A stretch of DNA of 14,724 nucleotides from Polyangia bacterium. Lineage in GTDB: Bacteria; Myxococcota_A; Polyangia; Palsa-1104; JAEUJZ01. The position numbers were made by a program, and so were the translations under genes. The DNA lies in the NCBI GenBank assembly GCA_044228505.1, contig JBGAUT010000014.1, positions 1 to 14,724 of the forward strand, read 5' to 3'. Position 1 is the stretch's first letter, and the number at the start of each line of letters is the position of its first letter. The notes beneath the pieces were generated by a model. That model saw only the letters and a list, made by a program, of their open reading frames with translations, was not told where the DNA came from and made no database searches. This document shows, piece by piece, positions 1-14,724 of the stretch.

Positions 1-1087
1 GCCCACCAGCGCCAGCGCCCCGAGCATCACATCAATGATCGACTTGGGATCCTCAATGCGCAGAATATGATCGGGCGAAATGACGCTGGCCCACTGCCTA
101 ATAATCACGTCGTCCTGGTAGTTGGCGTAAAGAGGATTCTCTGTGGCAGCCTGCGCATCTTCCGCAGGGCGTTGGCTTGGATCGTAGGTGAACTCGGCGA
201 TGGGAACATCGCTGTTTGGACCGGTCTCGCCTTTTTGGGAAATGACACCCTCGAAGCGCTGAATGTTGCCGTTCACTTCTAGCTCGACCCGATAGGACGT
301 CGGCGCAAGGTCGGTCTCGTGGAACCGATAGTTCTGGACGTAGACGCGATACTTGCCGGTGGGAGCAGTGCCCTTTCGCCACCGGACGTTTTCGACGGGC
401 TTGGTCGTCTCACCACGCACATTACGATCGACGTCCAGCTCACCGCGACAGACGGACTGCTTGTGTCCATAAAAGATGTGCTCGCCCGATGGCGTCACAA
501 CGTGAAGATCGAGGTCGTTGCGGTTGTCCCAGATCAGGCTGGCACGAACGTCGACCCCTTCGTAGACACCGCCCGCTGCTTCGACGCGCTTTTTGATCTC
601 GGCATCAATGTCCCGACGGCGCTCCGCCATCGACTTCTGCGGATAGATGAAAAAGACGTGATACTTCTGCGCAAGCTCCGCAAAAATCGCGCCCGAATCG
701 AGATCGTGGCGCTCCTCCCGACCGAGGACACGGCGGATCTGTTCGCGACTCACCTTGGGATAGAAGCCTTCGTCACCAAGGAAAAAGAAGTAGCCCTTTT
801 TGCCGTTTCGCAAGCAGTCCAGCTTCGAGTGGCGAGCGTAAAAGTAGGCCGCTAGCTCGTAGGACTCTTGGCCAGTGCCACCGCCGCCCTCTTCGATCCA
901 AATCTTCGATAGCACTTCGTCGAGCCGGTTGTCCGCCTCGAACTGTCCCACTTGCAGCGGTGCCTGATCCGAGTTCGCATCCCCAATGGCGGCAAAACTA
1001 ACCGCCGGACCGGAGACGTAGTTTTTCATAATGATCTGCCCGATAAACATCGGCAGCTTGTCGTAGAAGCTGCTGATCAAGGCCATC
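1..1087 (-). CDS. Hypothetical protein, 3'-truncated at the window edge (C-terminus lies beyond coordinate 1). It has a Gly-rich EEGGGGTGQESYELAAYFYARH segment and a beta-rich region (SLIWDNRNDLDLHVVTPSGEHIFYGH...YRVYVQNYRF...YRVELEVNGN) that I can only loosely liken to vWA-associated / DUF2135 (YfaP)-type domains.
   Basis: I hand-translated the reverse complement of 1..1100 and found one uninterrupted reading frame from about 1097 to the window edge at coordinate 1. It has no stop in the window, so it is absent from the M-to-stop ORF track. An in-frame TGA at about 1098-1100 closes the frame upstream. Candidate ATG starts are rc 1087 (MALISS...), 1050 and 1029 (MKNYVSG...). I saw no clear SD for any of them, so the start is uncertain. 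All plus-strand ORFs here (for example 319..855) look like antisense shadows. Confidence 0.55.
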
Positions 1088-1416: not shown

Positions 1417-2100
1417 GTGAAGCGGACAAACACGCGTCTTGGTGGTTTGGGGATCCTTGCGCTGGTCCTTGTGGGGCCAGGTCCGGTTCAGGCCGGCGAT
1501 CGTGGTCCCGAGTTTCCGTCGCTACCCTCGGCAACCGCGCTGTCGTTTTACCAGAAGCTGACCGGCATCATGCCAGGTGCGCGCAAAGATCTGCGCTGGA
1601 CCCTCAGCTTCGTCGGCGGTCAACCCCGCCTGTCTGTGCAGACGCGCAACTGCCCGGGGTCCAGCCAGGAGCAAGGAGCGGCTGTGCCAAGCTGCAAAGA
1701 GCCCTTCGGCAAGCCGGTGGTGTCGTACGAAGGCAAGCTGATTCAGCGGCCCTACGGCGTTGAGCTGCGGCTATCAAGAGAGGCACCGGCAGAGGACTAT
1801 CCGTCGGGGATGAACTTGACTTGCTTGCGCACCGTGGTTGGAGTGCTGCCGCCCGGTGCCTCGCTTGGGATGGGGGATGCCTGCAAAGGCGACGGGCCAC
1901 CGCCGCGCTGGCAGCCGGGGGCGACCAAGGATGTCGGGCTGTGGCTGTGCAGCCTGCAGAATGAGAATGGGGAACCGTGGTCCGGCTCTCGTTCGGTGGG
2001 GCCGCTGGCCTTTGCACCGAAGGCAGGCGTCGAGTGGCTCTTCGTCAACAACGACTGCGCGGGCCAAGAGGGCGCATATCGTGCGCTGCCGGGCCCGTAG
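1417..2100 (+). CDS. Secreted hypothetical protein, 227 aa, with an N-terminal signal peptide and six Cys residues.
   Basis: GTG is the first start codon after the in-frame TAG at 1375-1377. The N-terminus MKRTNTRLGGLGILALVLVGPGPVQA|GD has the n-, h- and c-regions of a Sec signal peptide. Third-position GC is high, consistent with coding. The overlapping minus-strand ORFs 1604..2017 and 1774..2334 have no such features. Confidence 0.5.
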   Translation: MKRTNTRLGGLGILALVLVGPGPVQAGDRGPEFPSLPSATALSFYQKLTGIMPGARKDLRWTLSFVGGQPRLSVQTRNCPGSSQEQGAAVPSCKEPFGKPVVSYEGKLIQRPYGVELRLSREAPAEDYPSGMNLTCLRTVVGVLPPGASLGMGDACKGDGPPPRWQPGATKDVGLWLCSLQNENGEPWSGSRSVGPLAFAPKAGVEWLFVNNDCAGQEGAYRALPGP

Positions 2101-2528
2101 GCGGCTACGTATCGACCGTTCGCGCTGTGTCGTCAAGGCTCTGGAAGCATTGGCATAGTCCGAACAAACGGACTGGAACGCTGTCTTCCCAGGGGCCGAG
2201 TCAGTTGTACCTGACCGGGCCCGCTTGTGTATCCGGCGAACCCGGGTGCAGCCCGTCTGACCTATTTTTATGAGGCATTGTTGGATACCGTGGAGTTTCT
2301 GGAAAATGAATGATACAAGTTCCGCACCAGACATCAGCTACCATGGCTGAGCCAATCATAGAGAAGTAAGCGTACGTGACGCACTCGTGAAATCAGTTAA
2401 AAAATGCTATTTTACTACACTGTAAACTTGCAGTACGATCAACAAACGCGGGAGAGTCTGGGCTGGCTTCCGTATTTGGCAATGCCGACAGCTCACCGAT
2501 CGTTTTTGTCGTATGGAGAAGTGTGATC

Positions 2529-2969
2529 ATGCATAAACTGCTCAGGGTATTTCTCATCATACAGACGCTGTTTCTCGGTATCACGGCGGTCTTGGGCGGG
2601 TTGGCCCTGGTCACTGGATGGAACTCACCACCGCTTTCGGAATTGAACGGGTCAGTATTCAAAGATTTCACCATTCCGGGAATTTCGCTATTTTTGATTG
2701 TTGGCGGCAGCGGGTTCTGCGCTGCGGTGTCGCTCTTTCGAAAGAGTCAATTAGCCAACGTGTTTTCAATCGCCGCCGGAGCGGTGATTATGTTTTTCGA
2801 ATTTGTTGAAGTGCTTACCATCGGATCCCCTCCCGGTGCTGCAAGGAATCTTCAGATTGTATATTTTGGGCTCGGATTTATCATCGTTATAACGGCGCTT
2901 GCGGTACGGTTCATGGAAATCACCGCAAGCCATACCAGCGCGAACACGACCTCGTCTTTCAAAGACTGA
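2529..2969 (+). CDS. Small integral membrane protein, about 146 aa, with about 4 predicted TM helices. Function unknown.
   Basis: The ATG at 2529 is preceded by GGAGAAG (2513-2519) at SD spacing. The ORF-track start at GTG 2523 is less likely. Four hydrophobic stretches are LRVFLIIQTLFLGITAVLGGLALV, GISLFLIVGGSGFCAAVSLF, VFSIAAGAVIMFFEFVEVL and IVYFGLGFIIVITALAV. The gene lies in a visibly lower-GC stretch than its neighbours. Confidence 0.55.
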   Translation: MHKLLRVFLIIQTLFLGITAVLGGLALVTGWNSPPLSELNGSVFKDFTIPGISLFLIVGGSGFCAAVSLFRKSQLANVFSIAAGAVIMFFEFVEVLTIGSPPGAARNLQIVYFGLGFIIVITALAVRFMEITASHTSANTTSSFKD

Positions 2970-3227: not shown

Positions 3228-4337
3228 CTAGAGCTTCAGTTTCTTCATCTCTGAGGCCATGAAGCTGTCATTGATGTGAGCGTAGACCATGGTCATCTGA
3301 ATGTCGGCGTGACCCAGCAGCTTTTGCAGCGTGGGGATCGATCCGCCAGACTGCACAAACAGCGACGCGAAGCTGTGGCGAAGACAGTGCAGCGGGGCCT
3401 GTGGAACCCGGAGTCCGGCGGCGCGGTAGAGCGCAACCGGGCTGGGCGCTCGATACGCTTGATGCCAAGGCGCAGCATCGAAGTTGCGTTTCTTCGGGCT
3501 GAGAGGGCAGATGACGTCCTCCTTCGTCGCCGGACAGCGACTCTGCCAGTCTCGCAGCGAGGTGAACAGCTCATCAGGCATCGGCACGGTGCGCGGCTTT
3601 CCTGTCTTGGTTACCCCACGATAGGACTTGCTCACGGTGATGACCCCTCTCTCCAAGTCGCAGTCTCGCCATCGCAAGCCAAAAATCTCCCCGGCCCGTA
3701 ACCCTGCCAAGAGGCCGAGCCGCACTGCCACAGCGAAAACCGCCCCGCGCAAGTCATGCTTCGCCTGATCATCTGCTGCGTCGAGGAGTCTCCGGGCCTC
3801 TGCGAAGCTCAAGAACTCAAGCCGTGCTTCCTTGCGGGGTTTTCGAAGTCCCGCGAAGGGGTTTTGAACCACCAGGCACTGCTTGGTGGCCCACGCGAAC
3901 ACGCAGCTTATCTGTGACAAACGGACCGCAGCCGTGTTGGCTGCCCCACTACGGATGAGGACGTTCCGCAGCTTCTCAGCTTGTGCGGGGGAGAACTGGG
4001 ACGCGACCAACGCCCCGACCTGACGCAACACGGGACGAAGGTGGGTCCGGGCTTTGCGCGCCCAACGATCGTGATTGCGGATTTTCGGTGAGTCGTACTC
4101 GCTCAGAAAGCGCTCCGACAGATCGGCGATTGTCATCATCGCCAGCTCGGGCTCTCGCTCCGGCACTCCCAACTTGCCGCGTGCGATCCGGGCCTCGATC
4201 TCGATGAGCATCCGCTTCGCTTCTGCGTGGGTATGTTGTCCGCTCGCTCTCTGCTTGCGCTTTCCATCGACGTCGACGAAGCGCAGATACCACCCGACGA
4301 AGCGACCGCCCTTTACCTTCCTTATCACCTCACCCAT
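3228..4337 (-). CDS. Tyrosine-type site-specific recombinase / phage-type integrase.
   Basis: The C-terminal catalytic signature is present: GLRAGEIFGLRWRD (Arg box), HCLRHSFAS (H-x-x-R) and LLGHADIQMTMVYAHI (His...Tyr nucleophile). The N-terminal KGGRFVGWYLRFVDVDGKRKQRASG...AEAKRMLIEIEARIARG is the usual integrase N-terminal arm/SAM-like domain. My preferred start is ATG at rc 4337 (MGEVIRKVKGG...), with AAAGGA 9-14 nt upstream. The ORF track gives the longer GTG start at 4385. Confidence 0.9.
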   Translation of the reverse strand: MGEVIRKVKGGRFVGWYLRFVDVDGKRKQRASGQHTHAEAKRMLIEIEARIARGKLGVPEREPELAMMTIADLSERFLSEYDSPKIRNHDRWARKARTHLRPVLRQVGALVASQFSPAQAEKLRNVLIRSGAANTAAVRLSQISCVFAWATKQCLVVQNPFAGLRKPRKEARLEFLSFAEARRLLDAADDQAKHDLRGAVFAVAVRLGLLAGLRAGEIFGLRWRDCDLERGVITVSKSYRGVTKTGKPRTVPMPDELFTSLRDWQSRCPATKEDVICPLSPKKRNFDAAPWHQAYRAPSPVALYRAAGLRVPQAPLHCLRHSFASLFVQSGGSIPTLQKLLGHADIQMTMVYAHINDSFMASEMKKLKL

Positions 4338-4341
4338 TGCC

Positions 4342-4359
4342 GTGGTCCTTTGGTGGTCC
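4342..4359. promoter_or_regulatory. Direct-repeat motif GTGGTCC-TTTG-GTGGTCC (copy B). It overlaps the SD region and lies immediately 5' of the integrase start.
   Basis: The coding-strand reading is GGACCAC-CAAA-GGACCAC-GGCA-ATG. It is near-identical to copy A at 1123-1140. Confidence 0.35.
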
Positions 4360-4443
4360 ACCGCCCCGAAGGATTTCGCCGACACAGCCCAGCACGAGGC
4401 CTGTGTAAGCGTCCACCCACAGCGATAGAAACCAGTTAAATCA

Positions 4444-4468: not shown

Positions 4469-4702
4469 CTAGTCGTAGATGATACGGGTGTCGTCGCCGC
4501 GAGAGCGGGTGACGTCCATGGCGACCACGATCGGTGTGTCGTTCATGCACTCGCGAATCTTGCCGTTGGGATCGAGGTTCTGGTGCACGCCTCGCCGGGC
4601 CGCAGCCTCTCCAGCCGAGCCATAACCGCGATAGGTAAACACGTCGCGGTTGTTCGAGCGCGACTCAAGCGCAATGTCCTCATCGTAGTTGCCACCGCCC
4701 AT
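4469..4702 (-). CDS. Hypothetical small protein, 77 aa.
   Basis: The ATG start is preceded by a purine/G-rich SD-like AAAAGGGGGG about 6 nt upstream. Codon usage is GC3-rich and in line with the neighbouring genes. I recognise no family in MGGGNYDEDIALESRSNNRDVFTYRGYGSAGEAAARRG... Confidence 0.45.
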   Translation of the reverse strand: MGGGNYDEDIALESRSNNRDVFTYRGYGSAGEAAARRGVHQNLDPNGKIRECMNDTPIVVAMDVTRSRGDDTRIIYD

Positions 4703-4769
4703 GGGAGCCCCCCTTTTACTGGCCTGTCCGCCGATCTTATACCAGTTGGGGCGATGCCACGCGGGCCAG

Positions 4770-5279
4770 CTACTCGGCGTCGATCAGCGCCTGGACTGCC
4801 ACCGATAGATACCCCGCATAGCGGGCGCGAAAGGCCGGGTCTTTCCAGTCGTCCGAGGTGACTTTGCCACGGCACTCGGACGTGCCACACCGGCAATCCA
4901 TCTGAAATCCACCGTCTGCGTGATCGATTAGCACCGTGCCGTAGTCAAACGTCAGTTCGGCCCCAGCGGCGATGTCGGTGAGTGCCACGACCATGATCTG
5001 CCCCCGAATGCCGCAGTTCGGAGCGCACGAGTGATTGACGAAGTCGCCATCGCCTAGCTCGTCCTCGCCAATCGGTCCTAGCAAATAGCCCGGCCAGATC
5101 GAAATGGCGACCGCTTGCACCTGCGGCGACAGCTTCTGAAACGTCGCCACGTCGTAGACATGTCCGCCAAACAGCGCCACCGTCTCACCGGCCCGAATCG
5201 GCTCGATGGCGAACGTGCCACGGCCATCCACCTGGCTTTTGCGGGTTACGACTTTGGGGCAAAGGTAACTTAGCGACAT
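4770..5279 (-). CDS. SET-domain protein, 169 aa, a putative protein/amine lysine N-methyltransferase with a post-SET Cys cluster.
   Basis: Canonical SET motifs are present: the GxG region DGRGTFAIEPIRAGETV, FVNHSCAPNC (NHSCxPN), ELTFDYG (ELxFDY) and CRCGTSECRGK (post-SET cysteines). AAGGGA sits 5-6 nt upstream of the ATG. The gap to the upstream SET gene is 12 bp. Confidence 0.85.
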   Translation of the reverse strand: MSLSYLCPKVVTRKSQVDGRGTFAIEPIRAGETVALFGGHVYDVATFQKLSPQVQAVAISIWPGYLLGPIGEDELGDGDFVNHSCAPNCGIRGQIMVVALTDIAAGAELTFDYGTVLIDHADGGFQMDCRCGTSECRGKVTSDDWKDPAFRARYAGYLSVAVQALIDAE

Positions 5280-5291
5280 ACGGATCCCTTG

Positions 5292-5702
5292 TTAGGCCGA
5301 CTGAGTGGCGCTGACCTGTTTCAGAAAATGACCACCGCCTGCAAGTTCGTGATCAAAGACTCGATAATCGCAGGTCAGTTCCTCGCCCGCCTTGATATCA
5401 CGATTGGCACGAATCACGGCGGGTGGTGACTCGGTGGTATTCGGATGATCACTGTGATTCATGAACCTGCCATCATCACAGCTCAAGACCAAGCTGCCAG
5501 GGAGATCTTCAAATCCGTAGCCATATCTGGAAAGAAATGTACGAAATATCGGCGGCAGCAATTCGATCTGTTCTCTGGTAAAAACTCGCTCTGACGCATC
5601 ATTCCATTCCCAAACCAAGCACCCGGCAGGAATATCTTCCGCCGCGAATAGACCAATACCACCGTGCTGATCGGGTCCAAGATAGGTCTTTACTGTTAGC
5701 AT
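5292..5702 (-). CDS. SET-domain protein, 136 aa, the second SET paralog. It has no post-SET Cys cluster.
   Basis: SET motifs are the GxG region HGGIGLFAAEDIPAG, RFMNHSDHPNT (NHSxxPN) and GEELTCDYR (ELxxDY). GC looks lower than in the flanking NRPS-like gene. Confidence 0.8.
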   Translation of the reverse strand: MLTVKTYLGPDQHGGIGLFAAEDIPAGCLVWEWNDASERVFTREQIELLPPIFRTFLSRYGYGFEDLPGSLVLSCDDGRFMNHSDHPNTTESPPAVIRANRDIKAGEELTCDYRVFDHELAGGGHFLKQVSATQSA

Positions 5703-5731
5703 GTTAGCGGATCCACATCAAAGGAAACGAC

Positions 5732-8197
5732 TCAGTAGGAGCCCACTAGAGAAGGGTTTAGCTCTTTGGTGTAAAACACGGCTTCTTTATGCACTGCGGC
5801 GGCTGACAGCAGTATTTTTTGGCCGTTGTCCTCATACGTTGCATAGGACTGACTACTCGTCCGAACAAATCCAAGCATTTCTGCCGATAGTGCGGTTGCG
5901 CGATGCAGACATAAGGCACCAGCGTGACGATAACCGAGCGATTTGGCCATATCTAGAATACGGCGGTCCAGTTCGAACAGTAGCTCGGTGCCGTCGATAC
6001 CTGGTTTTGCCCCAGCAATCGCCATATCCAGCATTTCTCGCTCCAGGAGCTTCGGAACTCGCAGATCGTAGGGCTCAAAGAAGTACGCGAGAAATGTCTG
6101 ATAACGCACAAAGGCTTCGGATAGCTCGGCCGGTTCGAGCGGAACCGGCGTGATCCAGTCCCCAGCCAGGCTGAAGCCGACCAGCTCACCACTTGCGCCG
6201 TCGAGCGCCACCAGCGACAGCCCTTGTCCTCGGTAACGCGAAATCAGCGCCCGATAGAACGGCAACAGATCGACGGCCTGTAGCCGGAGGCTTTGGCACA
6301 CGGGCTCTGCGCTGACAAAGACCTCGCACGCAAAGTGAATCAAGGCCTCTTCCGAGACTTCAGTGGCAGGCACAATCCGATAGTTGGGTAACGCGCTGGG
6401 CGTAGGGATCGGCTCGCGACCGCTGAGCCACCGCCCAAGCTGAGCCACCGATGAATCCCGTAGCAGCGAAAGGGGTACCTGCGGCCCCCCCCGAGTGGCC
6501 AGCTTGGCCCCTAGCTCCGCCAAGGCCAGTGAGTCGCCCCCGAGCAGGCCGAGGCTGTCGTGCGGACCCACCGGATGGATGCCCAGGACTTCCGAAAACA
6601 GTGTAGCCAGCGACTGCTCGTCTGCATCGAGAGGGACCGTCTCCGAGGGTCGATTCGCCTCGATTCGCTGTGCGATCTCCACCAGCGCTCGCCGGTCGAT
6701 TTTGCCACTTGGAACCAGCGGCAGCTCGGCCAGCGCCATGAATCGCGACGGCACCATCGCCGCTGGTAACCGCTCGCTCGCCCGCTGACACAGCCGCTCA
6801 ACCCCCAGTTCCATCGGCGAGCAAAACAGCCACAAGCGCCGAACTTCGGGATCCGCCGGACTGGGAACCGCGACGGCTGCCACCATCCCGCCCGCAGGCA
6901 AGTCGCTCGACACGGCCTGCTCGATCTCCTCCAGCTCCATCCGGATGCCGCTGACTTTGACCTGATTGTCGACGCGGCCCAGGTAGTCGAGCTGTCCATC
7001 AGGCAAGCTGCACACGCGATCCCCAGTTCGGAACAATCGCTTGTCGCAGCGCGTTGGATGCGGAACGAAACGCAACCGGTCTTCCTCTGGACGTCGCCAA
7101 TAGCCCCGAGACAGCACGGGCCCCCCGACGTACAGCTCGCCCTCGACTCCTACCGGAACAGGCCGCCGCTGCTCATCCAGCACCAACAGCTCGGCACCGG
7201 TGATGGCAGAGCCAATCGGTACTCGGCCCTTCGGAATCGGCGTCTGCGGGGCAAACTCGGCACAGGTCACATCGGCGGATACCTCGGTGCTGCCGTACAG
7301 GTTAAGCAGCGTCGCCTGCGGATGGGCCTGTCGAAAGCGCTGTAGTAGCGCCGTACTCAGCGTCTCGCCACTGCTCACCCACAGCGAGAGGAGGGGCAGC
7401 CGCTCGCCGAGGTCAGGAAACACCCGCAGCAGCGTCGATAGCAGTGATGGCACCAGCGTGAGCCGGGTCACCCGATGGGCGGCCAACGTCGCCACTAAGC
7501 GGTGCAGATCCGTCACTTCCTCTGGCCGAATGATCGCGGTGGGCACACCTTGCAACAGCCCGCTGAACACCTCCGTCACCGAGTCCACGAAGTTGAGCGA
7601 GGATCGATGCGCGACCACGTCTCCGGGCACAAGCGGATACTGGGCGAAGCCCCAGCGCAAGCGCGTTGCCATCCCGACTTGGGTCACACAAACGCCCTTC
7701 GGTCGGCCCGTGCTGCCGGAGGTATACAGAAGGCACAAGAGGGCCTCAGCCCCGTCGCTCGGCATCTGCAGCGGTTCCGTAGAAAAAGCCGCCACTTCTG
7801 CGGAATCTACCGCCACGCCGGTCAGCGACGACCGCAGCGACAGGGCATCCTGGTTTGCCCCGCTCGTCAACATCACCTGGGCCCCGCAGTCCTCGGCGAT
7901 CCACTGCTGACGCTGCTGGGGATACGTCGGATCGATGGGCACATAGATCCCGCCGGCGAGCAGGATGCCGAGCAGCCCGATCGTCGACTCCAGGGATCGA
8001 GAAATCGCCAAACCAACCGGTGTTCCGCCGCCGACACCGCGACCACGCAGAGCCCGAGCCACTTGTGAGGCTCGCCCGAGGAGCTGCTCGTAGGTAAGAG
8101 ACTGCTCAGCGCAGCGGAGTGCCAGCGCTGTCGGATGGCGCTGCGCAACCGCTACAAACCATGCCGCCAAGTTCTCGTCTGATTGCGAGTTCTCCAT
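5732..8197 (-). CDS. Stand-alone NRPS-like protein of 821 aa: adenylation domain, peptidyl-carrier (thiolation) domain and a C-terminal roughly 210-aa GNAT-like domain (A-T-X). It has no condensation, thioesterase or reductase domain.
   Basis: A-domain core motifs are LTYEQL (A1), LLYTSGSTGRPKGV (A3), NFVDSVTEVF (A4), NLYGSTEVS (A5, Ser in place of Pro), LFRTGDRV...YLGRVDNQVKVSGIRMELEEIE (A7/A8) and LPLVPSGKIDRRAL (A10). The carrier motif is HDSLGLLGGDSLALAEL, with Ser556 as the putative Ppant site. The C-terminal 605-815 lacks HHxxxDG, GxSxG and Rossmann motifs but shows a GNAT-like pattern (see the domain feature). Confidence 0.9.
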   Translation of the reverse strand: MENSQSDENLAAWFVAVAQRHPTALALRCAEQSLTYEQLLGRASQVARALRGRGVGGGTPVGLAISRSLESTIGLLGILLAGGIYVPIDPTYPQQRQQWIAEDCGAQVMLTSGANQDALSLRSSLTGVAVDSAEVAAFSTEPLQMPSDGAEALLCLLYTSGSTGRPKGVCVTQVGMATRLRWGFAQYPLVPGDVVAHRSSLNFVDSVTEVFSGLLQGVPTAIIRPEEVTDLHRLVATLAAHRVTRLTLVPSLLSTLLRVFPDLGERLPLLSLWVSSGETLSTALLQRFRQAHPQATLLNLYGSTEVSADVTCAEFAPQTPIPKGRVPIGSAITGAELLVLDEQRRPVPVGVEGELYVGGPVLSRGYWRRPEEDRLRFVPHPTRCDKRLFRTGDRVCSLPDGQLDYLGRVDNQVKVSGIRMELEEIEQAVSSDLPAGGMVAAVAVPSPADPEVRRLWLFCSPMELGVERLCQRASERLPAAMVPSRFMALAELPLVPSGKIDRRALVEIAQRIEANRPSETVPLDADEQSLATLFSEVLGIHPVGPHDSLGLLGGDSLALAELGAKLATRGGPQVPLSLLRDSSVAQLGRWLSGREPIPTPSALPNYRIVPATEVSEEALIHFACEVFVSAEPVCQSLRLQAVDLLPFYRALISRYRGQGLSLVALDGASGELVGFSLAGDWITPVPLEPAELSEAFVRYQTFLAYFFEPYDLRVPKLLEREMLDMAIAGAKPGIDGTELLFELDRRILDMAKSLGYRHAGALCLHRATALSAEMLGFVRTSSQSYATYEDNGQKILLSAAAVHKEAVFYTKELNPSLVGSY
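5753..6385 (-). other. C-terminal domain X, about aa 605-815, a putative GNAT-fold acyl/aminoacyl-transferase domain.
   Basis: The pattern GAKPGIDGTELLFELDRRILDMAKSLGYRHAGALCLHRATALSAEMLGFVRT mirrors GNAT motif A (GxG then LL..L...A...G...I.L.V) and motif B (A..(L)..(K/M)..GF). It is clearly homologous to the C-terminal domain of the second A-T-X protein (YRFAMTICTHRVTAIQAERAGFTRL). I assign the fold from the motif pattern only. Confidence 0.4.
6428..6634 (-). other. Carrier-protein (T/PCP) domain, about aa 522-590.
   Basis: The motif is LGGDSL. The Ser codon lies at about 6530-6532. Boundaries are approximate. Confidence 0.75.
6683..8140 (-). other. Adenylation (AMP-binding) domain of the A-T-X protein 5732..8197, about aa 20-505.
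   Basis: Motifs A1 to A10 are listed under the CDS. Asp235 of the FDxS-equivalent (NFVDSV) is retained, implying an alpha-amino-acid-type substrate. Boundaries are approximate. Confidence 0.8.
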
Positions 8198-8352
8198 CTA
8201 GATACTACTATAACCATAATTGTTTTTATTCATAATTAATTCATCACACATTGCTGTTCCACGATTTATCCAGCAATGGAATTTAATCACAAAATTCAGA
8301 TCTCGATGCCGTACTCCAATTCGACCATCAACATGCCATTGCGCATGAGAGT
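8198..8352. promoter_or_regulatory. AT-rich spacer of 155 bp (about 30% GC) between the two NRPS-like paralogs. It is a candidate internal promoter or regulator site, and contains a TTCATAATT direct repeat and an AATTAATT palindrome.
   Basis: The sequence is TAGATACTACTATAACCATAATTGTTTTTATTCATAATTAATTCATCACACATTG... Its AT content is striking next to flanking genes that I estimate by eye at 60-65% GC. CATAATT occurs twice, about 17 bp apart. Confidence 0.3.
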
Positions 8353-10821
8353 TCATGTAAGCTCCTTAACAAACAGGATCGCCTCGCGATGGACATTGGC
8401 CAATGAGGCAAACACCCGCTGTCCTTCAAACTCGTACGTGGAATAATCACGCGATGAGAGCCGAGTAAACCCGGCCCGCTCGGCCTGGATCGCGGTCACG
8501 CGATGCGTGCAAATCGTCATAGCAAAGCGGTAGCCACGTTCCCGAGCCGCAGCCAATGATTGCAGCTCCAACTGGCGGGTCATCTCGTACCCAGGAACGC
8601 CTGGAATGGTGCCGGTCAAAGAAAGTTGCACCACTTCGCCTCGGCTGGGTTCCCCGTACTTTCGAATGAACTCGTGTTCCAGCTCGGTCAGCAGATCGAG
8701 GCTCGGCAGCAGCCGCACCGGTGCCGTCTCAACCGGGACGACCGCCAGGCTGCAGAAGTCATGCGCGAGACAGATACCCAACACCGGCTCGCTATCCTTT
8801 AACCGTGCCACAAACGACAGATCGTCCGCCCAGCTCGCCTGCACAATCGGAGTGACAAACGGCAGGTCTTCTTCCAGCGTCAGCGACGTGGCAGCGGTGA
8901 GCGGCTCACGATCAGCGTCCATCTCAGCCGCCAGTCGAATGGTCTGCTCCTCACTGAGCCCCGACGCAGACAACGGCAACAGCTCGTACGTAGGCTGTGG
9001 AGGCAGGTCCAATGCCGAATGTTCGTCGCCATCGATCCAGCTCGCGATGACATGCAGGGGCAGCCGAGCAACTTGCACGCTCTCCAGCCGGCCACCGTGG
9101 AAATCTCGAACGATTGCGACCAAAAGCTCCGCCAAAGCGAGCGAATTCCCGCCCAAATCGGCAAAGGAATCCTGGCGCGCAATCGGACTCACAGATAGCA
9201 AGGAAGAAAACAGCGCAGCCAGCCGCCGTTCGGTGCCGGATTGCGGTTCCTCCGATGGCTCCAGCACCCGAGTCGTGCGCTGCGCGAGTTCCGTCAAGGT
9301 GCGCCGATCGAGCTTGCCATTGGGCAAAAGCGGCAGGGTTGCGATGGCAAGGTACTCGGCCGGCAGCATGCTGATCGGTAGCAGTCGCTGCGCCGCAGCC
9401 TGCAGCATCGAGACCGGCAGGTCCGGTGGCGAAAAAAACGCAAAGAGTCGCCGCGACAGAGGCTGGTCGGGTTCTTCTTTGACCACCACCGCCAGCTCAC
9501 GGAGCAAAGGACACGCGCCGAGCAGCGTCCGCTCAATCTCCTCCAGCTCGACCCGCACCCCGCGCAGCTTCACTTGATGATCTTGCCGCCCCAGAAAATA
9601 CAACTGACCGCTGCTGTCCCGTCGCACGCGATCGCCGGTGCGAAACAGCCGCTCACCCGGATGGTGCGGATGGTTCACAAAGCGCCGTGTCTGCTCGGCC
9701 GGACGACGTAGATAGCCCTGCGCAAGCACGGGGCCACCAACGTACAATTCGCCGCTTTGGCCATCGGGCACGGGCTGCATCTGCTCGTCCAAGATCAGCA
9801 GCTCGGCACCAGCCATCGACGATCCGATCGGCACCCGGTCTTCGGGCAGCGGCACTCTAGGCGGAAAGACCGCACAAGTGACATCGGCCGTCACTTCTGT
9901 GCTGCCATAAATATTGAGCATCGTGGCCGACGGATGGGCAGCCCGAAACTGCCGAAGCAGCGAGAGCGGCAGCTCTTCTCCGCTACAGGTCCACAACGTA
10001 AGCTGAGGCAGGGCCTGTTCCAGGTTGGGCACCGTGCGCAACAGCGCCGCCAGCACCGATGGCACCACGGTCAGTCGTGACACCTCAAAGCGTCTGAGCG
10101 CCGCGATGAGTGTTCCCAAATCCCTGACTTCGCTCGGATACAGCAGTGCGGTCGGAACGCCGCTCAGCAGTCCCGAAAAAATCTCGGCCACCGAGTCCAC
10201 AAAGTTGAGCGACGAGCGGTGCGCCACCACCTCGACACCACCTTGCGCAAACGGGAAGGCGGTCACGCCCCAGCGCAGGCGGTTGAGGGTAGCGCGGTGA
10301 GTGCCACACACGCCGTTGGGCCGACCAGTGCTGCCCGACGTATACAGGACATACAGCAGATCGTCGACGCAAGTCTTGGTCGCAGCAAAGTCCGTTGGTG
10401 GTGCCTGTCCACGGAGTGCATCCAGATCGACCACCAAGCCAGCGAATTGCTGCAGCGGCGGCACCATGGAAGACGAGGTGACCACCACCGATACCTCCGA
10501 GTCGGCCAGCAGGAAGCGCTGACGCTCCGTCGGATAGTCGGGATCGATCGGGACGTAGGCCCCTCCGGCCAGCAGCGTGCCAAGCACCGCGGTAAGCGAC
10601 TCCACCGAGCGTGGCAGCACGATGCCAACCAAGACGCCGCGAGTGACGCCATGCCCACGCAGGGCTTGGGCAACCGCAATCGCTCGCCGAAGGAGCTCCC
10701 CGTAGGAAAGATTCCCCTTGGAAGAAAGGACCGCAACAGACTGTGGTTGGCTCGTCGCTATTCGAAGGAAATGCGTCGACAGGGAGATGTCTTCAGACAA
10801 AAACATAGGCGCGACGACCAT
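8353..10821 (-). CDS. Stand-alone NRPS-like protein of 822 aa, paralogous to 5732..8197, with the same A-T-X architecture (A domain, carrier domain, GNAT-like C-terminal domain).
   Basis: A-domain motifs are LSYGEL (A1), VLYTSGSTGRPNGV (A3), NFVDSVAEIF (A4), NIYGSTEVT (A5), LFRTGDRV...FLGRQDHQVKLRGVRVELEEIE (A7/A8) and LPLLPNGKLDRRTL (A10). The carrier motif is QDSFADLGGNSLALAEL, with Ser560. The C-terminal 612-820 is homologous to domain X of the other protein. An SD-like AAGGGA lies about 10 nt upstream of the ATG at 10821. Confidence 0.9.
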   Translation of the reverse strand: MVVAPMFLSEDISLSTHFLRIATSQPQSVAVLSSKGNLSYGELLRRAIAVAQALRGHGVTRGVLVGIVLPRSVESLTAVLGTLLAGGAYVPIDPDYPTERQRFLLADSEVSVVVTSSSMVPPLQQFAGLVVDLDALRGQAPPTDFAATKTCVDDLLYVLYTSGSTGRPNGVCGTHRATLNRLRWGVTAFPFAQGGVEVVAHRSSLNFVDSVAEIFSGLLSGVPTALLYPSEVRDLGTLIAALRRFEVSRLTVVPSVLAALLRTVPNLEQALPQLTLWTCSGEELPLSLLRQFRAAHPSATMLNIYGSTEVTADVTCAVFPPRVPLPEDRVPIGSSMAGAELLILDEQMQPVPDGQSGELYVGGPVLAQGYLRRPAEQTRRFVNHPHHPGERLFRTGDRVRRDSSGQLYFLGRQDHQVKLRGVRVELEEIERTLLGACPLLRELAVVVKEEPDQPLSRRLFAFFSPPDLPVSMLQAAAQRLLPISMLPAEYLAIATLPLLPNGKLDRRTLTELAQRTTRVLEPSEEPQSGTERRLAALFSSLLSVSPIARQDSFADLGGNSLALAELLVAIVRDFHGGRLESVQVARLPLHVIASWIDGDEHSALDLPPQPTYELLPLSASGLSEEQTIRLAAEMDADREPLTAATSLTLEEDLPFVTPIVQASWADDLSFVARLKDSEPVLGICLAHDFCSLAVVPVETAPVRLLPSLDLLTELEHEFIRKYGEPSRGEVVQLSLTGTIPGVPGYEMTRQLELQSLAAARERGYRFAMTICTHRVTAIQAERAGFTRLSSRDYSTYEFEGQRVFASLANVHREAILFVKELT
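8362..8988 (-). other. C-terminal domain X, about aa 612-820, a putative GNAT-fold transferase domain.
   Basis: TGTIPGVPGYEMTRQLELQSLAAARERGYRFAMTICTHRVTAIQAERAGFTRL aligns with GNAT motifs A and B and with domain X of the paralog. Confidence 0.4.
9037..9249 (-). other. Carrier-protein (T/PCP) domain, about aa 525-595.
   Basis: The motif is LGGNSL, a variant of GGHSL/GGDSL. Boundaries are approximate. Confidence 0.7.
9292..10749 (-). other. Adenylation domain of the A-T-X protein 8353..10821, about aa 25-510.
   Basis: See the CDS entry. The FDxS-equivalent NFVDSVAEIF shares D-S-x-x-E with the paralog. Boundaries are approximate. Confidence 0.8.
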
Positions 10822-10959
10822 CCAGGTTTTCCCTTTGTTGCCGAGAGTTGGCTCTGAACAAGGACAAGGAAGGTAGGGACACCTTGGGTATCCGAATCTG
10901 GAAGCGACCAGGACGCATGTTCTGCCAAAATTTTCGCTAGGTTGCGCCGATTAGACAAC

Positions 10960-12234
10960 TTAAATCTCGACCTGTTTTAGCTCGCGAACCCGTCGAACAC
11001 CGTAGAGCAAACACAGCAGGATCGCCGCCCCGACCACGTTTAGCACGGCGTCGGTCGTGTACAGCGCTCGCAGTCCGTGACGCGCATAGACATGCGTATC
11101 GAGCGACAGCACATACATCTGGGCAATACTAGAAAACGCATAGAAGATCGAATACTGCGTCGAAGATGAATGACTTGATTTACTAATCAATTCAAACACC
11201 ATAGCTGAACAAGCCGCAATCGAGACACCCTGCATCACATCGTATACAATCGAGCCGATCGCATAGACAGATGGAGAAATTGGCATCACGGCCCAATATG
11301 TACCGACCATCGCCATAGCCACCGCAGAGATTATATATAGCGCACGACTATCGATTCGAAGGCAAAAGACACCACCAAGATAGACGCCAAGAAACGAAAG
11401 AAACCAACCAGCGAATCCATTGAGACTTACGGTCATCCATTCAGGGGCCTGATAATCTACCGCCAAGGCCGGTAAAAAGAAATTAAGAGCCATCGTGCTC
11501 GCAGGACAAATACACAAAACCAGACCCAGCCAGCCATCCCTTCCGGTCAGGGTCTGGCGAGCCTCCGCAACGAAAGCGCGAGCAATGACTCGCGGCTGGT
11601 GGCGCAAGCGCTCCGGTTCGGGAATAACCAGCGCCGCCAGGGCTGGCACAATGATGAGCGAGCCACTCACCAGCGCGAGCGTTGAGACGGAGCAGCGCTG
11701 CGTCAACACCAACATCAGCGTCGCACCAACCGAGCCACCGACTTGTATGCCCAAGTTGAGCAAGTTAGAGGCCTTGAGTCGACCGGCGCGATCCAGCGTG
11801 GTGGCAGCCAGTCCGCCAAAACAGCTCGTCGCCAACCCATATTGCATCTGCGCAACCAGAATCAGCGCATAAAAGAGATTCTCATGATTTCGCGTAATAA
11901 GGAACAATGCGATGATAATAGAGAATGCACAAGCCAAAGACATCCAAACAAACCACGATTTTCTTTTGATCCACAAATCCGTAATCGGATTACAGAACGG
12001 CTGTATAATATAAGGAAAGACGGAAGCCGTACTATACCAACCAATGGCCTCGATCGAGAGACCGAATTTACGCATCAAAAATGGCATCTCACTCAAGAAA
12101 AAGGAACCGGCCATTCCTAGCGAGAGCGCAATAATAAAATAGGGTAGAGCCGCATATCCGGACAGAGAATGCTCGATGGGCACTGGCTCGGTCAGACCGT
12201 CGCCCGCGAGATTGCGATGCAAGGCCGACTCCAT
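10960..12234 (-). CDS. MFS-type transporter with 12 predicted TM helices, a possible exporter for the product of the adjacent enzymes.
   Basis: The protein is 424-425 aa with about 12 hydrophobic segments. A cytoplasmic-loop motif after TM2, NPITDLWIKRKSW, resembles the MFS G-x-L-x-D-R/K-x-G-R/K-R/K loop. The start is ATG at rc 12234, and the track's TTG at 12237 is the alternative. GC looks lower than in the NRPS-like genes. Confidence 0.75.
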   Translation of the reverse strand: MESALHRNLAGDGLTEPVPIEHSLSGYAALPYFIIALSLGMAGSFFLSEMPFLMRKFGLSIEAIGWYSTASVFPYIIQPFCNPITDLWIKRKSWFVWMSLACAFSIIIALFLITRNHENLFYALILVAQMQYGLATSCFGGLAATTLDRAGRLKASNLLNLGIQVGGSVGATLMLVLTQRCSVSTLALVSGSLIIVPALAALVIPEPERLRHQPRVIARAFVAEARQTLTGRDGWLGLVLCICPASTMALNFFLPALAVDYQAPEWMTVSLNGFAGWFLSFLGVYLGGVFCLRIDSRALYIISAVAMAMVGTYWAVMPISPSVYAIGSIVYDVMQGVSIAACSAMVFELISKSSHSSSTQYSIFYAFSSIAQMYVLSLDTHVYARHGLRALYTTDAVLNVVGAAILLCLLYGVRRVRELKQVEI

Positions 12235-12402
12235 CAACGCGCCTGTCCGCTTGACCGCGAGCTACCGTTCATCAGCCTCTTTTTGTTCATCCGATCCACA
12301 TCTTTTCCATATGTTACCAAAGTCTTCGGCGACTCGATCGCACGCCCCAACCGGAAGAATCGCAGGAACGAAGCTCGCCAAGCGGCGGCGGCTCGGGGCT
12401 TC

Positions 12403-13461
12403 CTACTTGGATGTGCCAGAACCAACGAAGGCGGGGTCTTCGAGTGCCAGCGGGGTACAGTTCAGCGGGGCCACAAGTGGATTGCAGCGAGCGGGCTGGC
12501 CGGTGGGAACCTCAAAGCGATAGGAAAACTTACTCGTCGGTTCTGGAAAGTCGGTACTGATGAAGTGGGCCGCGCTCAGAAGGGCCGATTGCCCTCGGGA
12601 GATGTCTGCTAGGCGAGCTTCTTGGGTATCAGCGTCGGCACGAGTCCGCACGAGAAAGTGACTCTGCACTGCTTTCTGGATCTGCGCTTGGTCGGCCACG
12701 CTTTTTGGATTGTTGAGGACCGACACCGCCCCAAACGGATCTTCCGGCGCAGAGTCCACAAACAGCAGCCTTCCTTGCAGATCCTTTTTGTTGTGGGTGT
12801 ACGCAGTCCGCACCGGGCCCGTGGTGTCGAACGCAAAGAGCACTCTGCCCCGCAGCCGACCGAGCACCGGCCAGCCGCGCTCACGAAGCGCATCACGGAG
12901 CGTAGCCGATTCCCCCTGAACTTCCGCAGGAGTGATCACCCGTTGCCGTGGGAAGGCCGTCAGGATCTCGGCCTCCAGGTGCCCAAAGAAGCTCTCTAGT
13001 TCATCAGCGGGTGTGTCGTTTTTCGGTTCGATCTGAACGTAGATCGGGAGGTGTCCTGGATATGCATCCGAGAAACGTCGAATCTCTCGCAGGCAGTCGA
13101 GTAAGCGGGTGCAGCGCGTACCGGTGTCCACAAACGGAATGTGAACCACCGTCAATCCGTCCTGCGCATCAAAGGAGACATCCAGCTCCAGTTGACGGAT
13201 TTGCAAACGATCAAGCTGCTCGTAGATCGGAGCGTGCGTGTACTCCCACGCTTCAACGGAACCATCGTGGGTGTCGACGTGATAGCTATTGTGGGTACCC
13301 CGGACCTGAACGTGCTGGAGCTTGAGCAGGTCATCCAGCGGATACTTGAACGGCTTTCCGATTACGTCCGGCGGCACGTCTGAATCGCTACCGCTCGCGC
13401 CACAACCAGCACCGATCGTCAGCGCGACCAGCAGACCGATTCTAAGGAGCCCTCTACGCAT
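12403..13461 (-). CDS. Putative lipoprotein of 352 aa with a PLC-like phosphodiesterase motif (PI-PLC X-box-like HNSYH).
   Basis: The N-terminus MRRGLLRIGLLVALTIGAG|C fits a signal peptide plus lipobox ([LIV..][A/G][A/G]C). VRGTHNSYHVD resembles the catalytic-His region of the PI-PLC X domain, which is SSHNTY in eukaryotic PLCs. The rest of the protein has no family I can name. Confidence 0.5.
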   Translation of the reverse strand: MRRGLLRIGLLVALTIGAGCGASGSDSDVPPDVIGKPFKYPLDDLLKLQHVQVRGTHNSYHVDTHDGSVEAWEYTHAPIYEQLDRLQIRQLELDVSFDAQDGLTVVHIPFVDTGTRCTRLLDCLREIRRFSDAYPGHLPIYVQIEPKNDTPADELESFFGHLEAEILTAFPRQRVITPAEVQGESATLRDALRERGWPVLGRLRGRVLFAFDTTGPVRTAYTHNKKDLQGRLLFVDSAPEDPFGAVSVLNNPKSVADQAQIQKAVQSHFLVRTRADADTQEARLADISRGQSALLSAAHFISTDFPEPTSKFSYRFEVPTGQPARCNPLVAPLNCTPLALEDPAFVGSGTSK

Positions 13462-13521: not shown

Positions 13522-14724
13522 TTACATCTCCAGCGGCAGAAACCGAGCAGGACCGAAGACCTCGGCCCGCAGCTTCTTGAGCTGCTCGGCGACTTCCCAA
13601 GCATCCTGGGCTCGCTGCCGAGGACTATCGCGGATGAGGAACTGTAGGAATCGGGTAAATCGCTCATCGACCTGAGTCGGCACCGTTCCTTGTCGCACGT
13701 CGCCACCCAGCAGAAAGATCATCGTCTTGCCGAGAGAATACAGGTCGGACGCTGGCAGCGGCGGTTTGCGCGCCATCACCTCGGGAGGACTAAAGTCGGG
13801 ATTGTGCGCTCGAAAGCCCTGCCCGGTCTTTTCAGGTGCCACCACCGCATAGGTCCAGTCGATCACAAACACGTTGTGGTCTTCCGGACGCACCAGAATG
13901 TGGGCGGGCTCGACGTTGCCGTGAATGATGCCCTGCTGATGGGCAAAGCCCAGCGCGGACAGCGAGCGCGCCAAAATCCAGGCGACATGCTCGGCGTTGA
14001 GTCCATCCGGATAGCGATCCCGCACCATGTCTAGATCGTAGCCATCCAGATAGGCAAAGATGCTCCCCGCCTGTCCCGATGGTGCCATGAACTGATCGAT
14101 CAGCTGCGGCAAGTGTTTGCGCTGGGCACCCTCTTGGGATTGCAGCGTCCGCACGATCCGCGCCTCTTCCATCAGCAGGTCGCTGTCTTCCCGCTGCATC
14201 GCGATCTTGACCGTCACATCTTGCCCAGCCCTCGCACCCGATTGACACGATCCGCGATAGAGCATCGCCAGATCCCCTTGGGCCAAGATCCTCGTCACTC
14301 GATAACTGCCGCTCGGGGCGTTGACGGTAAAATCCACCTCTGAGTTTGGCGATGGTGTCGGGACACTGCGCAGCCGAGGAGGCGGCGGACGGACAGACGG
14401 AGTCTCTACATCGGACCCAGCGGCTTGGACGTCCGTCTCGACCGGAGGACGCGCACTCTCTAGCTCACGCACCGCTCGCTGATGCCATTCGTACAGCTTG
14501 CTTAGCAAATGACGGGCACTGTTCTGCGCGAGGCTGTTGCCGCCAAAGCGCTCGGGCCGCAGACGACGAACCAAAACCACATACTCTTCTTCGAGGAGCA
14601 CCAGCCGTTCATCGACACTGAGGTCTTGCAGTGCCATCGCTGGAAACACCTCCTGCGTCGAACGAGCCCCCGCCACGAGCGACTGAACCTCTGCCAGATC
14701 ATCGTGCAGCACGAACCATCCCCC
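13522..14724 (-). CDS. Ser/Thr-protein-kinase-like protein, probably 5'-truncated by the window end. Its catalytic motifs are degenerate, so it is a predicted pseudokinase or atypical kinase.
   Basis: Kinase subdomain landmarks are VTVKIA (VAIK Lys), LLMEEARIV (alphaC Glu), IIHGNVEPAHILV (catalytic loop, with HRD changed to HGN and Lys changed to Glu), VIDWTY (DFG changed to DWT, Asp kept), SPPEV (APE-like) and SDLYSLGK. The Gly-rich loop is degenerate (ILAQGDLAMLY). The frame is open from the GTG at 14712 to the window end, so the N-terminus may extend beyond 14724. Confidence 0.65.
   Translation of the reverse strand, partial: GGWFVLHDDLAEVQSLVAGARSTQEVFPAMALQDLSVDERLVLLEEEYVVLVRRLRPERFGGNSLAQNSARHLLSKLYEWHQRAVRELESARPPVETDVQAAGSDVETPSVRPPPPRLRSVPTPSPNSEVDFTVNAPSGSYRVTRILAQGDLAMLYRGSCQSGARAGQDVTVKIAMQREDSDLLMEEARIVRTLQSQEGAQRKHLPQLIDQFMAPSGQAGSIFAYLDGYDLDMVRDRYPDGLNAEHVAWILARSLSALGFAHQQGIIHGNVEPAHILVRPEDHNVFVIDWTYAVVAPEKTGQGFRAHNPDFSPPEVMARKPPLPASDLYSLGKTMIFLLGGDVRQGTVPTQVDERFTRFLQFLIRDSPRQRAQDAWEVAEQLKKLRAEVFGPARFLPLEM

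Follow-up and report, generated by a model that had tools for sequence, protein, structure and literature searches.

A gene cassette of putative Ebony-like amide synthetases and SET-domain methyltransferases in Myxococcota

Contig JBGAUT010000014.1 of a Polyangia bacterium (Myxococcota_A, assembly GCA_044228505.1), of which the whole analysed stretch of 14,724 nt is referred to here as the window, carries a five-gene cassette of ~7.5 kb whose members lie co-directionally on the minus strand and encode a major facilitator superfamily (MFS) transporter, two nonribosomal peptide synthetase (NRPS)-like proteins that we call ATX1 and ATX2, and two SET-domain proteins, SET1 and SET2. Each ATX protein comprises an adenylation domain (A), a carrier domain (T) and a C-terminal domain X, and profile comparison and structure prediction indicate that X has the fold of the GNAT/arylalkylamine-N-acetyltransferase (AANAT) enzymes and is homologous to the C-terminal domain of Ebony. 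Here we propose that the output of the cassette would most likely be one or two small cationic aminoacyl-amine metabolites, and to this Ebony-like model as a whole we give a probability of 0.55. The five genes are:

10960-12237, minus strand: MFS transporter, 425 aa (424 aa if started at the ATG at 12234); Pfam MFS_1 4.4e-26
8353-10821, minus strand: ATX1, Ebony-like A-T-X protein, 822 aa; AMP-binding 1.2e-69, PP-binding 1e-5, TIGR01733 356 bits
5732-8197, minus strand: ATX2, Ebony-like A-T-X protein, 821 aa; AMP-binding 2.3e-73, PP-binding 1e-8, TIGR01733 353 bits
5292-5702, minus strand: SET1, candidate methyltransferase, 136 aa; Pfam SET (PF00856) 2.2e-15
4770-5279, minus strand: SET2, candidate methyltransferase, 169 aa; Pfam SET (PF00856) 2.5e-13

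The gaps from the MFS gene down to a 77-codon open reading frame (ORF) that follows SET2 measure 138, 155, 29, 12 and 67 nt, and 83 nt more lie between this ORF and the gene of a tyrosine integrase. A preliminary description of this DNA had listed six co-directional genes with gaps of 12-155 bp and had named their domains as MFS, A, T, SET and, next to them, integrase; the genes are present as minus-strand ORFs, the first five gaps fit, and a Pfam profile search returned every one of these domains. The two ATX proteins, which are 44% identical over their full length, gave AMP-binding and PP-binding alone in the Pfam scan and no match to condensation, thioesterase or reductase domains, in keeping with the earlier statement that they lack all three. 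The cassette is not a canonical modular NRPS cluster, which would combine a condensation domain with a thioesterase or reductase release domain. Both proteins lie above the cut-off of TIGR01733, the amino-acid adenylation domain model (317 bits), and by profile matches and motifs both have the order expected of an Ebony-type enzyme, namely an NRPS-type A domain followed by a carrier domain with the phosphopantetheine serine, PP-binding exceeding its cut-off in each. Their domains are placed as follows:

9289-10761, minus strand: ATX1 adenylation domain, residues ~21-511; A10 motif PNGKLDR
9031-9225, minus strand: ATX1 carrier domain, PP-binding; serine motif GGNSL
8356-9000, minus strand: ATX1 domain X, AANAT/Ebony-CN-like, residues ~608-822
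6677-8152, minus strand: ATX2 adenylation domain, residues ~16-507; motifs YTSGSTGRPKG, FRTGD and PSGKIDR
6425-6613, minus strand: ATX2 carrier domain, PP-binding 1e-8; serine motif GGDSL
5735-6400, minus strand: ATX2 domain X, AANAT/Ebony-CN-like, residues 600-821

No Pfam or NCBIfam family matches domain X, which makes up the final ~220 residues of each protein, and the X domains of ATX1 and ATX2 are ~34% identical to each other. A profile of three X sequences retrieved insect dopamine N-acetyltransferases from the PDB (E 8e-4), while a profile of 16 sequences matched 6dym, the C-terminal condensation domain of Ebony, along its entire length with E 4.6e-13, the polyamine acetyltransferase A654L of the chlorovirus PBCV-1 with E 1.5e-14 and Drosophila AANAT1 with E 1e-8, ATX1 X being included in both alignments. 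In addition, a Foldseek search of the PDB with the AlphaFold model of ATX2 X (pLDDT 76.9, pTM 0.79) found the Drosophila dopamine N-acetyltransferase 5gi5 (E 1.3e-10) and 6dym (E 1.9e-10) at TM 0.68-0.71, the value for 6dym being 0.71. The GNAT-like character assigned to this domain in the preliminary description was thus examined for a missing GNAT fold or missing transferase homology, and the profile and Foldseek matches to 6dym speak in its favour. The family has an invariant Glu-Pro pair (ATX2 residues 631-632), which the HMMER alignment places on Glu47-Pro48 of AANAT1, where Glu47 is the general base; Ebony is without Glu-Pro at the aligned position. In the same alignment, the CoA pyrophosphate-binding loop Arg/Gln-x-x-Gly-x-Gly/Ala is not conserved in X, and this loss suggests that the acyl donor is probably a carrier-bound thioester. 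The same loop has been lost in SbzI, a carrier-protein-dependent GNAT of altemicidin biosynthesis, which like FeeM acylates an amine from a carrier thioester with its P-loop replaced (PMC11685415). SbzI and FeeM are stand-alone enzymes of other GNAT subfamilies that work with separate A and carrier proteins, whereas an ATX protein would hold all three functions in one polypeptide.

The specificity codes of the A domains were read from an alignment in which a fragment of GrsA-PheA was set beside 22 members of the family, and since this fragment returns its textbook code DAWTIAAICK, the register of the alignment is validated. ATX1 has the code VDATTSIADK, which is identical in its L003 ortholog despite an overall identity of only 60%, ATX2 has VDTTVSLADK, and the family-wide pattern is VDxTxS[LI][AG]DK (L001-L027 denote the relatives' contigs that were compared, and P-numbers denote homologous proteins). 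The A-T-X codes have Val or Leu in place of Asp235, the residue that in A domains binds the amino group at the alpha carbon, and have Asp at 236 and 331 instead. Codes for beta-alanine such as VDWVISLADK, in which the Asp stands at 236 and not at 235, resemble this pattern, and by this resemblance the A-T-X code seems to be of the beta-alanine type. It suggests as the substrate a small acid, either a beta- or omega-amino acid or a methylated form of one. A small residue at code position 239 was considered as a mark of SET-associated A domains and rejected, as P0014, an A-T-X protein without a SET, has Val there. We also observed that the A3 motif of ATX1, YTSGSTGRPNG (window 10330-10365, residues ~153-164), has Asn in place of the usual Lys, as do the ATX1 orthologs P0002 and L003, while ATX2 keeps the Lys.

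The relatives of these proteins were sought with an exhaustive profile search with X against 1.8 billion representative proteins, which was used in place of a word-indexed protein search that had given just one X homolog; it returned 515 relatives, with 13 clusters at E<1e-30. The best fifteen or so are proteins of ~800 aa with X at the C terminus. In other matches a pyridoxal phosphate (PLP)-dependent decarboxylase stands in front, or KR-ACP or FAAL-KR-ACP replaces A-T, and many are stand-alone proteins of ~215 aa. In P0092 and P0100, X forms the C terminus of KR-ACP and FAAL-...-KR-ACP proteins, so that a role of X in amine-dependent off-loading may extend to polyketide or fatty-acyl carriers. 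The 169-aa and 157-aa genes upstream of the A-T-X genes P0006 and P0014 were checked as hidden SETs and are not SETs.

Some of these relatives occur together with decarboxylases. In Acidobacteriota, namely in metagenome-assembled genomes (MAGs) of Bryobacteraceae and Terriglobia (L009 and L008), the gene of a decarboxylase-A-T-X fusion comes after that of a stand-alone PLP decarboxylase, the fused decarboxylase being of group II and the fusion gene of L008 being split into two overlapping reading frames. Aquabacterium and Rubrivivax MAGs have a decarboxylase fused to a truncated A domain and X (decarboxylase-A'-X), and in Aquabacterium the decarboxylase-X fusion is followed by a gene of the BTP family (chlorhexidine efflux, PF05232), whose transporters export short diamines. 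The decarboxylase/A-T-X loci are:

L009, 4971-10558
L008, 5018-10648
L006, 6803-10762
L007, ~6900-11100

The insect route to N-beta-alanyl-dopamine consists of an aspartate decarboxylase, a DOPA decarboxylase and Ebony. Two decarboxylases beside an Ebony-like enzyme resemble this route, and by analogy one might supply the omega-amino acid and the other the amine; these contexts therefore lend independent support to aminoacyl-amine synthesis as the function of the A-T-X family. Together with the homology of X and the beta-alanine type of the code, they strengthen the parallel to Ebony-type enzymes, with A-T followed by an amine-selecting transferase domain, that had been drawn at the outset and that is well supported as the best reading of these proteins.

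Ebony-type enzymes are known from animals. With Drosophila Ebony, the N-beta-alanyl-dopamine synthase of ~880 aa and domain order A-T-CN, the ATX proteins (~820 aa) share the order of domains, the lack of C and TE domains and the homologous C-terminal domain, and their A-domain codes resemble the beta-alanine type; unlike Ebony, they are bacterial (Myxococcota), occur as tandem paralogs linked to SET and MFS genes, and keep the Glu-Pro of the AANATs in X. With the insect-type AANATs (Drosophila Dat/AANAT1, 3te4 and 5gi5; PBCV-1 A654L, 3qb8), X shares the predicted fold, the Glu-Pro and the sequence homology at E 1e-8 to 1.5e-14 given above, but it differs in being fused behind A-T and in having lost the CoA-loop motif. 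We thus describe a rare bacterial A-T-X family whose members stand in settings of their own, fused to decarboxylases in Acidobacteriota and paired with SET genes in Myxococcota. It bears on the origin of Ebony and would offer compact single-protein amide synthetases for aminoacyl-amines.

The pairing with SET genes was surveyed by genome and metagenome scans with the X profile and by exact-protein look-ups; for locus retrieval a 5-sequence X alignment was used, the 16-sequence alignment being too diverse. An ATX pair with at least one SET gene is found in five diverged lineages, whose taxon labels, where given, are Myxococcales or Nannocystis, and whose identities to the window are listed here with the gene orders:

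Lineage 1 (window type; L010, L020-L025, L027, L002), 85-100% identity: MFS-ATX1-ATX2-SET1-SET2
Lineage 2 (L001), 73-79% identity in MFS and ATX, 86% in SET2: order of the window, SET1 absent, ATX2 frameshifted
Lineage 3 (L003/L026, L012), ~60% identity: MFS (inverted)-ATX1-SET1'-ATX2-SET2
Lineage 4 (L004), ~60% identity: ATX1-SET1'-ATX2-PhyH dioxygenase-MFS (inverted)
Lineage 5 (L005, Nannocystis sp.), 55-60% identity: PhyH-ATX1-SET1'-ATX2-SET2

SET1 occurs in L010, L022 and L027 and is missing from L001, whereas SET2 follows ATX2 in L001, L003, L005, L010, L012, L022 and L027, its match in L005 coming in two pieces in different frames, which probably reflects a frameshift. The contig of L002 holds both ATX genes and ends before the SET position, the SETs of this lineage being seen in L010, L022 and L027. 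SET1', which lies between ATX1 and ATX2 in L003, L004, L005 and L012, is ~30% identical to SET1 of the window, and in lineages 3 to 5 its start lies only a few nucleotides from the stop codon of ATX1, with a 4-nt overlap in L003 and L012. Three types of SET are thus involved, and often each A-T-X gene is directly followed by a SET of its own. The MFS gene is kept with the A-T-X genes in L001, L003, L004, L010, L012, L021, L022 and L024. That the SET genes might fail to be conserved with the A-T-X genes had been named in the preliminary description as a way in which its proposal could fall; the synteny is kept in all five of these myxobacterial lineages, and within the A-T-X family the SET pairing is specific to this cassette.

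All genes of the cassette are under purifying selection. The dN/dS values are 0.06-0.11 for SET2 (against L022 and L001), 0.08 for SET1 against L022, 0.17-0.20 for the ATX genes and 0.12-0.14 for MFS; SET1 gave 0.36 against L027, where dS is only 0.09.

Both SET proteins score well above the Pfam SET cut-off of 22.4 bits (57.4 for SET1 and 50.8 for SET2) and, judged by their motifs (NHS and ELxxDY), both belong with the class V SET enzymes. SET1 has NHS (as NHSD) and ELTCDY and is without post-SET cysteines, while SET2 has NHSC, ELTFDY, a conserved C-terminal tail and a CxCx4C post-SET zinc motif, in which none of the cysteines varies among 30 homologs, so that a post-SET zinc cluster is predicted for SET2 and not for SET1. 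The likeness between the two is confined to a 48-residue stretch around the catalytic motifs. Among PDB sequences, SET2 matched KMT2A with E 3.6e-10 and BurB with E 2e-4, the latter over residues 81-143 only; SET1 gave no BurB match in the PDB. The AlphaFold model of SET2 (pLDDT 93.5) has the SET domains of ASH1L, MLL and NSD as its best Foldseek matches, with BurB at rank 21 (E 6e-8, rmsd 8.5). SET2 shares the NHSC, ELTFDY and CxCx4C motifs with KMT2A/MLL1, ASH1L and NSD, but it differs from them in its length of 169 aa, in having no pre-SET or chromatin-reader domains, and in its operon-like setting with NRPS-like enzymes.

BurB is of interest here as a SET-domain methionine S-methyltransferase (MSMT) encoded in the Burkholderia bur locus for NRPS-polyketide synthase (PKS) biosynthesis (PMC7496086, PMC12542666). 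It converts free methionine to S-methylmethionine, from which dimethylsulfoniopropionate (DMSP) is derived as the substrate that a zwitterion-specific A domain loads (PMC7496086; structures in PMC12542666). The earlier remark that SET proteins and NRPS-like enzymes had not been described together in a bacterial gene cluster is therefore outdated; the precedent of BurB lowers the novelty of a SET protein in a thiotemplate pathway and opens up a competing sequence of steps, with the SETs acting first. Like the SETs of the cassette, BurB and the related MSMTs (bur/malleicyprol and Streptomyces DMSP pathways; 9l4t, 9l4v) are small stand-alone prokaryotic SET proteins within a thiotemplate cluster. 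They differ from SET2 in that the target of BurB is a thioether sulfur and not an amine and that the bur cluster has no Ebony-like enzyme, and the likeness between the two proteins is weak (E 2e-4 over ~60 residues). SET2, by sequence and model, and SET1, by sequence, do not appear to be close relatives of BurB/MSMT. Our searches of the literature for bacterial Ebony-like enzymes or for SET with NRPS turned up only fungal chromatin papers and reviews, and no cassette that pairs Ebony-like enzymes with SET methyltransferases and a transporter was found in the literature searched.

Taken together, these data lead us to the following model. The A domain of an ATX protein would adenylate a small acid of the beta-alanine type (an omega-amino acid, or perhaps the N-methylated onium form of one) and load it as a thioester on the carrier domain of the same protein. 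X would take this pantetheine thioester in place of an acyl-CoA and release the acid by aminolysis with a free amine. It is quite probable, in view of the domain order and of the predicted fold and homology of X, that the ATX proteins are carrier-dependent amide synthetases of this kind. Since the two proteins hardly differ in their A codes but share only ~34% identity between their X domains, they might use the same or similar acids with different amine acceptors, or might carry out two successive acylations. The SET proteins, as S-adenosylmethionine (SAM)-dependent enzymes, would methylate a lysine-like primary amine of the pathway, on a precursor, a carrier-bound intermediate or the product, and the MFS protein would move the product or a precursor across the membrane. 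That the SETs act in the ATX pathway is likely, if a shade less so than the amide synthetase function, whereas the quaternary ammonium compound that the pathway might yield as its end product is a doubtful outcome. If the model is true, the cassette would be just the second setting that ties a SET-fold methyltransferase to a thiotemplate pathway, and probably the first in which such a SET is aimed at an amine rather than at sulfur. The cassette combines known kinds, namely Ebony-type synthetases and small-molecule methylation by SET proteins, and so does not form a category of its own, yet it is compact and unusual.

Several of our findings weigh against this model and are best considered together. 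The call of the substrate depends on ten residues, on a single GrsA reference and on resemblance to beta-alanine codes. No SET gene lies near the more distant A-T-X loci of other phyla, and SET is therefore dispensable for A-T-X function as such; even among the cassettes, L001 is without SET1 and has a frameshifted ATX2, and L004 is without SET2. Histone methyltransferases resemble SET2 more closely than BurB does, in sequence as well as in fold. The SET2 family is widespread in prokaryotes, with members from Micrarchaeia and Paceibacterota that are 39-46% identical and annotated as protein-lysine methyltransferases, while several other SET2 homologs stand in unrelated neighbourhoods.

Among the rival explanations, a bur-like order of steps fares best, although we consider it unlikely. 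The SETs would here act first and make an onium acid (beta-alanine betaine, another N-trimethyl acid or S-methylmethionine), which the A domain would load and X would transfer to an amine. In the bur pathway, where BurB leads through S-methylmethionine to DMSP, the A domain without Asp235 binds the onium group via another acidic residue, and a missing Asp235 combined with an acidic residue at another position is likewise a mark of A domains for onium zwitterions (PMC7496086). With Val or Leu at 235 and Asp at 236 and 331, those of ATX1 and ATX2 would fit this description as well, and BurB is detectable from SET2 both in sequence (E 2e-4) and by Foldseek (E 6e-8). However, the SET-less, decarboxylase-bearing A-T-X relatives share the code pattern, so that unmethylated omega-amino acids fit it too, and SET2, with the canonical lysine-methyltransferase motifs and a post-SET zinc site, resembles KMT2A far more than BurB.

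The points on SET2 raised above are also the case for regarding the SETs as ordinary protein-lysine methyltransferases, which would either modify an ATX or another protein or be mere neighbours without a chemical role: the SET2 family is common in prokaryotes without NRPS genes, its members are named protein-lysine N-methyltransferases, its closest solved structures are histone methyltransferases, and some homologs stand among unrelated genes. We hold this to be improbable, as the linkage to ATX survives changes of gene order in five lineages with three types of SET, each adjoining an ATX gene and with 4-nt overlaps, and as the SETs of L003 travel within a 7.9-kb insert. In addition, SET2 homologs recur beside genes of amine metabolism and beside an NRPS. 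In L013 (1-13727), a homolog 46% identical to SET2 lies in an unrelated cluster, with a large NRPS that ends in A-MT-T-reductase and a SnoaL-like protein on one side and an arginine decarboxylase and a saccharopine-dehydrogenase-like enzyme on the other; in L015, L016 and L017 the SET2 homolog is followed by a saccharopine-dehydrogenase-like gene and has a divergent acyl-CoA ligase gene upstream. This recurring link between SET2 and amine metabolism is suggestive, not conclusive.

A bolder version of the Ebony-like model, to which we give little credence, would have the SETs N-methylate the terminal amine of the aminoacyl group on the carrier, with the pantetheine arm mimicking a long lysine side chain of a protein, so that a fold of protein-lysine methyltransferases would have been recruited, one SET for each A-T-X protein, with betaine amides as products. 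It would also make the cassette a mobile unit without a recombinase that inserts at a 17-bp core and can form a circle of ~8.7 kb. Finally, it is very unlikely that X is not a release domain and acts instead as an acetyl-CoA-dependent N-acetyltransferase on the tethered amino acid, or that it aminoacylates an envelope amine (lipid or muropeptide) with an AmpG-like MFS protein handling the substrate, since the acetyl-CoA dependence of the nearest solved X relatives, the distant AmpG-like match of the MFS protein (47 bits against a family cut-off of 756) and the scores of the A domains against DltA models, likewise far under the family cut-off, are set against the unconserved CoA pyrophosphate-binding loop, the absence of any other release domain in the protein and the direct precedent of Ebony for aminolysis by the X fold (6dym).

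The integrase gene and the 77-codon ORF downstream of SET2 had been described as an associate of the cassette and as one of its genes, and neither assignment holds. The features of this part of the window are:

4469-4702, minus strand: 77-codon ORF, 5' remnant of a disrupted gene whose homologs are longer
1-1067, minus strand: 3' part of the disrupted gene, running off the window; 96% identical to L022 7758-8792
1068-4471: 3.4-kb integrase mini-element, inserted in the downstream gene
3228-4385, minus strand: tyrosine recombinase (integrase); Pfam Phage_integrase 6e-28
1417-2100, plus strand: secreted-looking ORF of 227 aa, in the mini-element
2523-2969, plus strand: membrane ORF of 148 aa, in the mini-element

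Homologs of the 77-aa ORF run past ...RIIYD into KLPMFIGQIEL..., and a tblastn search placed residues 76-133 of one of them, P0222, on window 1068-895 on the same strand with 79% identity, in a frame that stays open to the left end of the window. The ORF is thus what is left of the 5' end of a longer gene (at least 454 aa), which continues at window 1067-1. An 8-bp direct repeat, TCTACGAC, at 1060-1067 and 4472-4479 bounds the mini-element, with the halves of the gene on either side, and the GC content within it is 0.52-0.54, under that of its surroundings. L022 presents the empty site: it has the same cassette with the gene uninterrupted (at least 454 aa, 7536-8897) and no integrase. From the repeats, the split gene and this empty site we conclude that the integrase is the recombinase of a small element that targets the downstream gene; it sits in its own 3.4-kb insertion, the integrase and the 77-codon stump are outside the biosynthetic unit, and integrase and cassette do not form one att-bounded island. 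The integrase stands at the same insertion site in L001 and L027, and in L001 the homology to the window stops at the integrase stop. The disrupted gene matches no Pfam family, and a vWA identity that was considered for it was rejected for want of Pfam support; an MbtH-like identity for the 77-aa ORF was rejected too, since this ORF has no such motif and is a gene fragment.

In some genomes the cassette itself nevertheless looks mobile. An insert of 7,922 bp separates the HRD motif of a Ser/Thr kinase gene from its DFG motif in L003 (5687-15681; likewise in L012 and L026). It consists of exactly MFS, ATX1, SET1', ATX2 and SET2 with no recombinase inside, and it is bounded by a 17-nt direct repeat, GTCCCGGTAACAT(G/C)TTC. 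In L012, the corresponding region has 88% nucleotide identity to that of L003, and in both L003 and L012 the cassette is without a recombinase inside the inserted unit or among the annotated flanking genes. L004 (1-8817; assembled with MEGAHIT, k=141) has an exact terminal overlap of 141 nt, which makes it a unit of 8,676 bp, either circular or in tandem, with ATX1, SET1', ATX2, a PhyH dioxygenase and MFS and without a recombinase gene. There, a conserved "right-end" sequence, CCCGACATCGCGCGTTCCC...GTGGTCCCGG, is joined to the 3' end of the MFS gene, and this junction is as would be expected for the excised circle of an L003-type insert. The cassette-end sequences of L003 and L004 were searched for in the window and not found.

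On the upstream side, the cassette of the window is flanked by two genes:

12403-13461, minus strand: PI-PLC-C1 phospholipase (Pfam)
13522-14712, minus strand: Ser/Thr kinase-like gene (Pfam)

Both were considered as members of the cassette and rejected; they are kept only in the close relatives L001, L010, L021 and L024 and are not beside the cassette in L003, L004, L005 and L012, and they probably lie outside it. Scans of the window for tRNA genes and Rfam families returned no feature, and a scan for promoters and terminators gave matches no more numerous than in shuffled sequence.

Some lineages of the cassette show further peculiarities. In the ~79%-identical L001 (8070-10531 and 10531-10571), the ATX2 gene is split by a frameshift into 650 aa and 176 aa and SET1 is missing, which suggests decay or modular loss in this lineage. 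The PhyH family includes hydroxylases and halogenases of carrier-bound amino acids, and a gene for a PhyH-family Fe/2-oxoglutarate dioxygenase with the HxD motif is part of the cassette in L004 (4031-4966), where it replaces SET2, and in L005 (~7200-8024). Between ATX2 and PhyH, L004 also holds an array of ~45-nt tandem repeats (GCTAGGGTC...CTGCT...) at 3580-3960.

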